Position numbers: made by a program
Sequence record: MT747435.1
DNA length: 37,561 nucleotides
Direction: 5' to 3' (one strand)
Source: Enterococcus phage AE4_2
In this document: positions 23,601-26,600 of the stretch, piece by piece
Numbering within the stretch: position 1 is the stretch's first letter
How the letters are laid out: each line of letters starts with the position of its first letter

Positions 23601-26600
23601 ACACTCGATGATAAGTCGAAAAAAAAGGCTGAAAATAAAGCTGGCTATCAACCAATTGATAACAAACTGCCAAAAGGGAAGGAACCAAACGAAAAAGATC
23701 CATTTGAAGCAATCTTATCAAAATACGAGTAATTGGAGGAATTTTTTATGGCTACAAAATTTTACACGAAACAATATGCAGGCTTATTAGCCAAAATTAC
23801 AGAGAAAAAATCTTATTTTTTACGTGCGTTTGGAGGGAAGTTGCAGACGTCGGATGCTGTAAAAGATAGCGACACATTTTTGTTGCTAAAAACTTCAGAT
23901 ACACCTGTGGTAATGCAACCCTACAACACTGGTGAAAACGTAGCGTTTGGTACAGGAACTGGCAACTCTAATCGTTTTGGGCCACGTAAAGAAATTAAAT
24001 CTATTGATACAACGGTTCCTTATGAATCTCCGTTAGCGATTCACGAAGGAGTGGATAATATCACAGTAAACGATGACGCTGACGAAGTAGTAGCTGAAAG
24101 ATTAGAGGAACAAGCGATTGCTTGGGCTGAGTATATCGACGGTTTATTAGGTAAAGCATTATCTGATGCAGCCTCTGAAACGATTCAGTTTGAATTAACC
24201 AGTGAAGGAGTAACTAAGCTGTTCTCAACGGCGCATAAGACTTTTGTGAATAATTTAGTTTCTAAGTCTCTTGCTTGGGTTGCTTATGTTCACCCTGATG
24301 TTTATGATTTTTTAGTAGACAATGGTTTAGCAACAACAACTAAAAATTCAAGTGCTAACATTGATGAACAAACAATATATAAATTTAAAGGTTTTGTATT
24401 GGTTGAAATTCCAGAAAGCAAATTACAAACTGGGGAAATGGCTCAATTTTCCGCGGATAGCGTAGGTATTGCGGGCGTTGGTATTTCTGTAACACGTGCT
24501 ATTGACTCCGAAGATTTTAACGGAGTAGCAATCCAGGGAGCTGGAAAATATGGTAAACACATCCCTGAAAAAAATAAAGTAGCTATTTTAAAAGCAGTAA
24601 AAAAAGCGTAACGCCTACTAATCCAGCAACGGGTATCACGCCTAGTCAGAAAACATGGACGGGTGCAGTAGGCGCAACTAAGACATTTACTATTGCAGCT
24701 AATCCAGTAGATGCCACAAACGCACAAGCTGTAATTTCAGCAATTACAGTGATATCTAGTAATGAGAGTGTTGCTACTATCACTAAAAATAAAAACGGTG
24801 GATTTGATGGCTCAATTATTGCAGAAGGTAAAGCGACATTTGAATTTACTTCCGGTGCGTTTACAACCTCTATTGCAGTAACAGGTACACCTGCATCTTA
24901 GGAGGTGGCTAACTTGATTATCAGCATTGAAGAAGCAAAAAAAATTGATCCATCGGTTACTCAGAGTGACTTAGACGCGTTCGAACAGACAGTTAGGCAA
25001 CTAACCAATAATAATTTTCAAAACGTTCATATACGCTTTAGGGATGTTGTTTTTAAGGGTAATTCTATTGTGTTAAAAGATAACCCTCTTGGTTTACGAG
25101 TAGGTGATACGATTCAAATTAGTAATTCTAAAGTAAACGATTGCCTAACAACTGTTGAAGCTATCACAGAAAAGACACTGGAAACAGATGTTGAAGAGCC
25201 TTTTTTTGAGGGCTCTTTTTCTGGTGCTTTTATTACAAAAGTAGAGTATCCAGCAGATATTAAAATGGGTATTGAAGAACTTTTACGATTTAAAAAATCG
25301 ATGGGCGCAAAGTTAGGCATTAAGTCAGAATCTATCGCTAGAATGTCTATCACGTATTACGATGTGAACGCTAGTGATAATATCGAGGGCTTTCCTGCAG
25401 CAAAGTTCAGTTTTTTAAATAAATATAAAAAAATGAGGTGGGGATAATGTACTCACCTCAAACCTTTTTTCTACAAGAGGTCAAAGGCCAAAAGCCTGAC
25501 GGATTAGGAGGGCTTATTGACGATTGGGGCTTGTTTAAAGAAGTTTCTGGATATATCGACTTGGTGACAGGAACAGATGAAACAACGAAACAGAACGCAT
25601 TTGTAGAAGAATCTACACACATTCTTATTATTCCCGAATTTATTGAGGGGATAACAGACAATATGCGAGTAGTTGATCAAACAAATCGTTATTACGATAT
25701 TACGTATTCCGATAATCCTGTTGGCATAAAGCATCACAATGAAATTTATTTGAAGTTTGAAGGTGTTTTAAGTGGCGAAGAATGACTTTAAATTTATCAG
25801 CTACAAAGACAAGGTAAAAAAAGAGTTAGACGCGACGGCAGAACGGGGTATGACTAAAGTCCTCATGATTATCAAAGCTGCTGCAAAGTCTGGTGCGCCA
25901 GTTGAAACAGGACAGTTGCGAGACCGGATAGACTATCAACTTAAGGCTGTTGGAGGAAAAGTGGTCGGCATTGTCGGCTCGCCAGAACAATACGCCATTT
26001 ATGTTGAATTCGGAACCGGAGAATTTGCTGAAAATGGCTCAGGACGTAAAGGTGGATGGTTCTTTGAGGGATCAGATGGAGAATGGCATTTTACAAGAGG
26101 TCAGAAACCACAAAAGTTTTTAAGAAACGCGTTTCGGCAGAATAAAGAAAAAGTCATCGAAATTCTAGGGAAAGAATACGGAGCTACATTTAAAGGGGGA
26201 TAAGTGATGGAAGAGTTTATACGAGAGCTGGTAAGAATCTTACAAGAGATACACCCAGAAACATTTTTAGAAACGAATCCTCGAAAAGAGGTCATCTATC
26301 CATACGCCACCTTTGATTTTGATTCCGAGCCTATTCGTAGAAATCAAGATGGTTTTTATCTGGATATTGATATTTTTGACAAAAATAATTCATTTTTAAA
26401 CTTGCTTGTTCTAGAAGACAAGTTAAAAACAGCTCTTTGTTACAAAAGGGTACTAACTCCAGAACTAAATCTCATTTTTAGTTTTCAAGGATCAAATAAA
26501 ATACCAACAAAAGAAGAGCTGTTAAAAAGAAGAAATGTCCGCTTTTATGTAGCGGTCGATTGGAGGAAAAAAGAATATGGCACTACCTAAAACAGGTTAT

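Follow-up and report, generated by a model that had tools for sequence, protein, structure and literature searches.

Immunoglobulin-like (Ig-like) domains appended by frameshifting to the capsid and tail proteins of phages are well documented (PMC5009743). In the Lactobacillus casei phage A2, the -1 frameshift that relates gp5A and gp5B (Garcia, Rodriguez and Suarez 2004, cited in PMC5009743) is needed for an essential head component with an Ig-like extension (review by Atkins et al., PMC5009743, from which the experimental facts on A2 given here are taken). The 10B extension of phage T3 is likewise Ig-like (PMC5009743), the 10B protein of phage K1F arises by frameshifting (PMC13370021), and the Listeria phages A118 and A500 (-1) and PSA (+1) produce C-terminally extended capsid proteins by recoding (PMC5009743). 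The Ig-like domain of lambda gpV and the Hoc protein of T4 are non-essential surface decorations and are presumed to bind carbohydrates or mucus (PMC13370021). Here we analyse the 3' end of the major capsid gene of Enterococcus phage AE4_2 (MT747435.1; the window, that is, the whole stretch of DNA analysed, comprises 37,561 nucleotides (nt)), where a slippery run of seven A residues precedes an open -1 frame encoding a putative Ig-like domain. We consider that a programmed -1 ribosomal frameshift at this site makes a capsid-Ig fusion, with a probability of roughly 0.78; taking both kinds of recoding together, a recoded fusion of this sort appears more probable still, on the strength of the sequence comparisons presented below.

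The mechanism (now textbook material) and the purpose of such fusions have been established elsewhere, and what is new here is an unannotated locus, its A_AAA_AAA heptamer and its association with another capsid family. The literature searched contained nothing relevant on capsid frameshifts in Enterococcus.

Results

A capsid gene followed by an open -1 frame

The elements of the locus, in order of position, are as follows.

23748..24611, + strand: major capsid protein gene, 287 amino acids (aa), 31.1 kDa, corresponding to phiFL4A gp39
24568..24574, + strand: second in-frame A7 heptamer, A_AAA_AAT (GA-A AAA AAT), 31 nt upstream of the slip site
24599..24605, + strand: slippery heptamer A_AAA_AAA, a canonical X_XXY_YYZ in the capsid 0 frame (GT-A AAA AAA)
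24605..24901, + strand: -1 frame extension, 98 codons (SVTP...TPAS) plus the TAG at 24899-24901
24606..24611, + strand: 6-nt spacer GCG TAA, including the 0-frame stop at 24609-24611
24612..24675, + strand: predicted stimulatory RNA structure, an outer 8-base-pair (bp) helix with inner hairpins between its arms
24626..24862, + strand: Big_2-type Ig-like domain, the Pfam-matched part (extension residues 8-86)
24749..24901, + strand: phiFL4A gp40, 'conserved hypothetical protein', a 50-aa open reading frame (ORF) starting with GTG that corresponds to the 3' half of the extension
24900..24916, + strand: ribosome-binding site and start of the next head gene, with AGGAGG at 24900-24905 and the GTG at 24905 that is annotated in phiFL4A

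Over positions 23700-24950 the window is 99.6% identical to phiFL4A, a temperate Enterococcus faecalis phage whose gp39, annotated as 'capsid protein', is 99% identical to the capsid protein of the window. A preliminary description of this DNA, made from the sequence alone, had taken the ORF for the major capsid protein, and its match to phrog_840 'major head protein' (E = 8.6e-145) and an AlphaFold model with an HK97-type fold, whose best Foldseek matches in the PDB are phage capsids including T7 gp10 (3J7V), bear out this assignment. A Pfam scan of the capsid protein gave no match, and searching PDB sequences with the capsid protein and with the extension profile returned nothing meaningful for either. 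The ORF starts at ATG 23748, which corrects the TTG at 23733 given by the ORF tool, and ends in GCA GTA AAA AAA GCG TAA, with the final codons and the A7 run at 24599-24605 exactly as first described.

No stop interrupts the -1 frame between 24578 and 24898; the TAG at 24899-24901 closes it, and its translation reads ...SSKKSVTPTNPATGITPSQKTWTGAVGATKTFTIAANPVDATN...AVTGTPAS*. A shift at the heptamer is predicted to yield ...AVKK-SVTPTNPATGITPSQKTWTGAVGATKTF...AVTGTPAS, in which 98 aa, against the approximately 97 claimed at first, derive from positions 24605-24898; the long form would measure 384 aa and 40.7 kDa, a gain of 9.6 kDa over the 287-aa, 31.1-kDa short form. The preliminary description also held that this frame opens at 24578, has no start codon of its own and ends at the ribosome-binding site of the next gene, and all three statements are accurate. 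The first ATG, GTG or TTG in the frame is the GTG at 24749, half-way through the domain and with no Shine-Dalgarno sequence before it, while the closing TAG overlaps the AGGAGG (24900-24905) of the next gene. The tryptic peptide SVTPTNPATGITPSQK of the extension is encoded upstream of any -1 frame start codon. As regards the next head gene itself, TTG 24914, which lies 8 nt past the Shine-Dalgarno sequence, is a likelier start than GTG 24905, which overlaps AGGAGG. The anatomy of capsid gene and extension is therefore confirmed in the sequence in every detail that could be checked.

At the base composition of the window, the probability of 108 stop-free codons arising by chance is approximately 2e-4 to 6e-4, so the open -1 frame is more than a chance occurrence. 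Just two stretches of 90 or more stop-free codons on the + strand start at a gene 3' end with a slippery heptamer at the junction, namely the extension and the stretch at the probable frameshift site of the tail assembly chaperone genes. The A7 run by itself is unremarkable: the window holds 37 A7/T7 runs against 74.6 ± 12.2 expected, and all 100 dinucleotide-preserving shuffles contained at least 37. This scarcity fits selection against slippery homopolymers.

Two further candidate elements were rejected. A -1 shift at the upstream heptamer (24568-24574) would meet the TAA at 24575-24577 at once, so that no extension would be possible and the capsid protein would only be shortened by 12 residues. 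An internal Shine-Dalgarno stimulator was discarded as well, the 30 nt before the slip-site heptamer containing no GGAGG-like sequence.

Homologous extensions follow the capsid genes of A2 and other phages

A tblastn search with the 98-aa extension against 50,697 phage records (2.3 Gb) showed that the capsid gene is immediately followed by a homologous segment in A2, J-1, PL-1 and many L. casei/rhamnosus phages, in phiJL-1, Sabazios, Silenus and Bassarid, and, with 70% identity, in Enterococcus phage vB_ElaS_B1578. The capsid-gene ends recovered in this way read C CCA AAA GCG TAA (TAG in phiJL-1) followed by CGCC, with the homologous segment in the -1 frame, and their counterpart in the window is A AAA AAA GCG TAA CGCC. 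In GenBank, the J-1 record lists a 'major capsid S' together with a two-piece joined coding sequence, 'major capsid L', while the phiJL-1 record lists a separate 'structural protein with Ig domain'.

The likeness to A2 extends over the whole arrangement. A2 has the junction AAAAGCGTAACGCC and a homologous -1 extension after its capsid gene, shares an identical 15 nt (AAAAGCGTAACGCCT) with the window and places the 0-frame stop one codon past the heptamer. Its extension, also of Big_2 type, is 41% identical to that of the window over 93 aa (tblastn 2e-8, BLASTP 4e-15), a stem comes soon after the stop, and the head-tail connector genes lie beyond the site. The frameshift proposed for the window is supported mainly by homology.

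The record PQ554527.1, 'Acinetobacter phage D2SVT' (L002), has the same gene layout in this region as Enterococcus phage vB_ElaS_B1578 (L003, PQ283533.1), and junction and extension translation are nearly identical in the two. L002 also matches many Enterococcus prophage proteins, and its Acinetobacter baumannii host label looks doubtful.

When the extension was used in a word-indexed protein search, the only matches were short stand-alone calls labelled 'hypothetical', none of them a fusion. An exhaustive phmmer search with the hypothetical 384-aa product against 1.84 billion representatives, in turn, revealed natural single-frame capsid-Big_2 proteins, P0191 (365 aa, aligned to query residues 5-382) and P0194 (369 aa, residues 2-379). 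The BLASTP alignment to P0191 (E = 4e-38) is colinear through the junction, with NKVAILK-AVKKSVTPTNPATGITPSQ opposite NKVAVIKLSIDGTV---NPAT-IELSQ, and P0158, P0168, P0147 and P0142 carry other Ig-like C-terminal domains in frame on capsid relatives. Judged from these alignments, the natural fusions show that the C-terminus of the window's capsid family is a natural attachment point for Ig-like domains.

Within the same capsid family, Big_2 segments also occupy the -1 frame behind other sites. In Lactococcus phage ul36 (L126, NC_004066, after ORF287; 63% identity) the site is ACA AAG TAA, which does not form a canonical heptamer, and in Brochothrix phage BtpYZU03 (L127, after ORF28; 61% identity) it is A_AAA_AAG directly before TAG; neither record annotates a frameshift. 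A degenerate version of the usual junction, CCCCTAAGAGCGTAACG (= APKSVT), lies inside the ul36 extension, as though the shift site had been displaced upstream.

The junction is conserved among close capsid relatives

Relatives whose capsid proteins are 99, 95, 87 and 79% identical to that of the window retain GTA AAA AAA GCG TA[A/G] CGCCTAC together with an intact Big_2 frame. Across this range (79-99% capsid identity), GTAAAAAAAGCGTA[A/G]CGCCTAC forms an island of identity between diverging flanks. In the 87% relative (L141) the stop is TAG instead of TAA, and the 3' arm of the predicted stem reads GUGGGCG, with a U.G pair retained. The extension of the 95% relative (L016) differs from that of the window by 41 nt and 19 aa, with no stop and no indel, while 110 of the 130 differences in the capsid part fall at third positions. 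The extension evolves faster than the shell, as expected of an exposed domain. Capsid relatives at 77% and at 60-66% identity are without the extension and have different gene ends.

The extension is predicted to fold as an Ig-like domain

The preliminary description had read a Big_2-like Ig signature in the -1 frame translation and proposed a comparison with the PF02368 profile. In that comparison the extension matched Pfam Big_2 at E = 1.9e-4 with 21.7 bits over profile positions 2-71 of 79, a score under the gathering cut-off of the family, and 5 of 22 close homologues of the extension matched Big_2 at E <= 0.01. Family membership by sequence is accordingly borderline, a near miss. The Ig-like character of the segment stood up better, since the extension also matched phrog_215 'structural protein with Ig domain' (E = 7e-15) and its AlphaFold model, built with 22 homologues, has a mean predicted local distance difference test score (pLDDT) of 75.8.

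The model is mostly beta, with seven strands and one short helix: a disordered linker of approximately 7-15 residues leads into a beta sandwich whose strands span residues 17-95. In a Foldseek search of the PDB it came closest to the C-terminal Ig-like domain of lambda gpV (2L04, E = 4.5e-5), followed by a tail protein of SU10, the Big domains of Leptospira LigA/LigB and Big_2-CBM56. The expectation that the segment has an Ig-like fold thus holds in both profile and structure prediction, and the extension can be assigned as an Ig-like domain of Big_2 type. In the AlphaFold model of the complete 384-aa product the capsid part was modelled, and the extension, with a pLDDT of 30-40, is uninformative on the position of the Ig-like domain relative to the shell.

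A helix is predicted 6 nt downstream of the heptamer

Exactly 6 nt after the heptamer, CGCCUACU (24612-24619) is predicted to pair with AGUAGGCG (24668-24675) in an 8-bp helix, which places a stable 3' structure within the 5-9 nt from the heptamer at which one is looked for. The 64-nt element has a minimum free energy of -21.2 kcal/mol (z = -2.24), with 5 of 200 shuffles folding as well, and an anchored-helix test in which the position of the 5' arm was fixed and the rest shuffled gave P = 0.007. A search of Rfam with positions 24400-25000 found no frameshift element and a single chance match to 5.8S (E = 0.19).

Helices of 7-9 bp start at a common CGCC anchor in the different lineages, with arms that differ among them: CGCCUGCU:AGUAGGCG, CGCCAGCCU:AGGUUGGCG, CGCCUGA:UCAGGCG and CGCCACC:GGUGGCG, with loops of 5 to 40 nt in the last. 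Helices that share an anchor and differ in their arms are the pattern that a stimulatory stem would show, and the conservation of CGCC would be explained by its anchoring of the stem. Paired cells make up 94% in the Big_2 group and fall to 22-49% with the partner slid.

The junction recurs at the ends of unrelated capsid genes

We scanned IMG/VR for the exact 14-mer pattern AAAAGCGTAACGCC and obtained matches at no fewer than 118 loci. Matches were considered true cassettes when a long upstream ORF ended in CCCAAAA or AAAAAAA plus GCG TAA and 57-141 codons of open -1 frame came after it. Approximately 45 of the 118 IMG/VR matches listed satisfied this definition, and about 70 of them, with no long upstream ORF and no heptamer, were dismissed as chance occurrences. 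In every cassette examined the stop lies one codon past the heptamer, as TAA or, in phiJL-1 and L141, as TAG. Most cassette relatives use C_CCA_AAA, and A_AAA_AAA takes the same position in the lineage of the window.

The pattern [CCCAAAA or AAAAAAA]GCGTAACGCC recurs at the 3' ends of unrelated capsid genes (L007-L124, e.g. L030, L043, L117 and L075), with further examples in L119, L012, L031, L038 and L058. At least three capsid families stand ahead of the junction (PF05065 Phage_capsid, PF03864 Phage_cap_E and phrog_840), and at least four types of payload behind it: Big_2, a HeH-like domain (sub-threshold; motif 'TVAEITAWLDAHGIDHTGKT..ADLLALVP'), a SbsC_C-like Ig domain (sub-threshold) and a 141-aa domain. 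L038 and L058 have nearly identical downstream modules, unrelated capsid genes and different heptamers, which implies a recombination boundary at the junction itself.

One tentative interpretation, to which we would give slightly less than even odds, is that the 14-17 nt junction [C_CCA_AAA or A_AAA_AAA]-GCG-TAA-CGCC and its stem constitute a portable recoding cassette that recombines between unrelated capsid genes and brings with it exchangeable display domains (the four payload types above). If so, the window would carry the A7 variant of this cassette, and the cassette would serve as a plug-in through which any HK97-fold capsid could display a surface module in sub-stoichiometric amounts. 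No description of this conserved nucleotide cassette was found in the literature searched, which did not cover the primary A2 papers or Fraser et al. 2006.

Probable programmed frameshifting and its alternatives

In the mechanism that we propose, most ribosomes would read GTA AAA AAA GCG TAA through to its stop and produce the 287-aa capsid protein. Some would pause with two lysine tRNAs on A_AAA_AAA (24599-24605), held by the RNA helix starting 6 nt further on (24612-24675) and perhaps aided by the stop one codon ahead. Paused ribosomes could then slip back by one base and continue through ...AVKK-SVTPTNPATG... up to the TAG at 24899. The resulting capsid protein of 384 aa would end in a flexible linker followed by a Big_2 Ig-like domain. 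Long and short forms would assemble together, leaving Ig-like domains in sub-stoichiometric numbers on the exterior of the shell. The analysis shows the layout of the sequence, its homology and conservation, the fold and the predicted RNA helix; we infer the actual shift, its efficiency, the surface location of the domain and its function. The domain likely mediates weak binding to carbohydrates of the cell or of mucus, and possibly contributes to assembly, as reported for A2; exposure on the surface and binding to carbohydrates or mucus are proposed because of the fold class and of work on other phage Ig-like domains (PMC13370021).

Several observations weigh against this mechanism or against parts of it. 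The A_AAA_AAA heptamer is less prone to shifting than A_AAA_AAG in E. coli (PMC5009743). Third positions account for 20 of the 41 differences between the extensions of the window and L016, a modest bias. The Big_2 score falls 1.1 bits short of the 22.8-bit gathering cut-off. Regarding the stem, covariation in the Big_2 group is weak (two compensatory pairs, equalled in 68 of 500 shuffles), the fold of the wider 122-nt region is ordinary (z = -1.4), and the 3' arm overlaps conserved A/K-V-G codons, so that its conservation may be partly protein-driven.

The preliminary description had named transcriptional slippage alongside programmed frameshifting, and of the two, ribosomal -1 frameshifting is the better supported. 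Polymerase stuttering on the A7 run would give some A8 transcripts and, from them, the same ...VKKSVTP... fusion, so that the protein products are identical and the two mechanisms cannot be separated by sequence alone. The site is indeed a homopolymer of seven A residues, and the low number of A7 runs (37 in the window, where 74.6 are expected) would fit a cost attached to either kind of slippage. Efficient transcriptional slippage in bacteria, however, normally needs runs of about nine or more. What favours the ribosome is that the homologous cassettes carry C_CCA_AAA, with only four A residues, on which polymerase stuttering is implausible; these A4 cassettes include members of the window's own capsid family (Sabazios, phiJL-1) and, as the comparison of L038 with L058 shows, a near-identical downstream module. 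The helix conserved 6 nt downstream is, moreover, a signal for the ribosome and not for the polymerase. We consequently regard slippage as improbable, at around one chance in ten.

Programmed frameshifting also fares considerably better than the reading of the extension as a separate small gene, in which the 50-aa ORF at 24749-24901 (gp40), or an extended form of it begun at a rare start codon, would encode a free Ig-like head protein. This is how GenBank annotates gp40 in phiFL4A, and stand-alone calls of 69-104 aa exist in relatives; free decoration proteins are, besides, a known solution in other phages. The GTG at 24749, however, has no Shine-Dalgarno sequence before it, and a protein begun there would lack the first half of the beta sandwich, whereas homology reaches as far as the slip site, far upstream of this codon. 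The starts called in relatives are inconsistent, some of them falling inside the capsid gene, and single-frame capsid-Big_2 fusions exist. Together, these observations make a separate gene very unlikely.

Least credible of all is the absence of any recoding, with a homopolymer sequencing error or mutation having split a single-frame gene or with the extension persisting as an unexpressed remnant, for although homopolymer runs are error-prone and distant relatives do have single-frame capsid-Ig fusions, the same A7, out-of-frame layout and 0-frame stop occur in the window, in two phiFL4A records and in eight or more independent contigs of metagenomic or prophage origin (the 95, 87 and 79% relatives among them), the out-of-frame layout, with the stop one codon past the heptamer, is conserved across all cassette lineages, the -1 ORF is intact despite 41 substitutions, and no extension with stops or indels was seen among the relatives.

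Other features of the window

A second putative frameshift site of the window looks like the standard -1 site in the tail assembly chaperone genes (G/GT, 27594-28348). A 146-aa ORF (27594-28034) contains the in-frame slip site T_TTT_TTC at 28001-28007 (GA-T TTT TTC), and the -1 frame (28001-28348) ends just before the gene for a 1049-aa tape measure protein.

The minor head protein (21007-22470) is a MuF-ADP-ribosyltransferase fusion, with matches to Phage_Mu_F (E = 6e-19) and ADPrib_exo_Tox (E = 6e-22). Positions 21896-22691 have no BLASTN match to phiFL4A, while both flanks are 97-99% identical to it; the toxin-like C-terminal part, together with the small gene that follows, has thus apparently been swapped.

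The probable major tail protein (319 aa, 26577-27536) carries in frame a C-terminal segment of approximately 100 aa (PVPVRPEVPKNVQATVEEDGAISVSWASDG...) with the look of an FN3/Ig-type domain, for which the only Pfam match is a weak one to SdrG_C_C (E = 0.012). This tail protein decoration, unlike that of phage A2, would need no frameshift.

Discussion

The most immediate consequence of the proposed frameshift concerns annotation: gp40 would not be a gene, but the final part of a second, longer capsid protein, and Ig-like domains are probably displayed on the phage virion. The records of phiJL-1, Sabazios, ul36, Brochothrix BtpYZU03 and vB_ElaS_B1578 do not annotate this feature either, and its omission from several related records points to a systematic blind spot of gene callers. 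The prediction bears on the adhesion of a temperate gut phage of Enterococcus faecalis to cell-surface or mucosal glycans, on the proteomics of enterococcal prophage particles and on phage display at this site, the T7/K1F 10B frameshift having already been used for display (PMC13370021).

Among known systems, A2 is the one with which the window shares its junction, and the differences between the two lie mostly outside it. The heptamer is C_CCA_AAA in A2 and A_AAA_AAA in the window and its close relatives, both canonical, and the predicted stem starts 9 nt past the heptamer in A2 against 6 nt in the window. The capsids have no BLASTP similarity and fall into separate clusters, A2 gp5 being a 400-aa protein with a processed N-terminus and the window's capsid a 287-aa protein of phrog_840 type accompanied by a separate scaffold gene. 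A2 has been tested by experiment, and its short and long forms are both reported to be required (PMC5009743), whereas the window phage is known here from its sequence alone. J-1 and PL-1 have the A2-type cassette, and differ from the window in capsid family and heptamer.

The L. plantarum phages phiJL-1, Sabazios, Silenus and Bassarid (Coetzeevirus, 'Silenusvirus') resemble the window in capsid (homologous, 38-44%) as well as in junction and Big_2 extension and, like phiFL4A, have no frameshift annotated. They use C_CCA_AAA, unlike the window, and their stem consists only of a CGCC:GGCG base and an inner helix. The Listeria phages A118, A500 and PSA are, by description, comparable temperate siphoviruses of Firmicutes, PSA differing in the direction of its shift (+1). 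In T7, T3 and K1F, the 10A/10B pair likewise reflects a -1 shift close to where the capsid gene ends, with a minor, longer subunit as its product; these podoviruses of Gram-negative hosts, however, use other slip sites and have no homology to the window in either signal or extension. Lambda gpV, which provides the best structural match (2L04), and T4 Hoc share the fold class of the extension, but lambda encodes its Ig-like domain in frame and carries it on the tail tube, and Hoc is a protein of its own.

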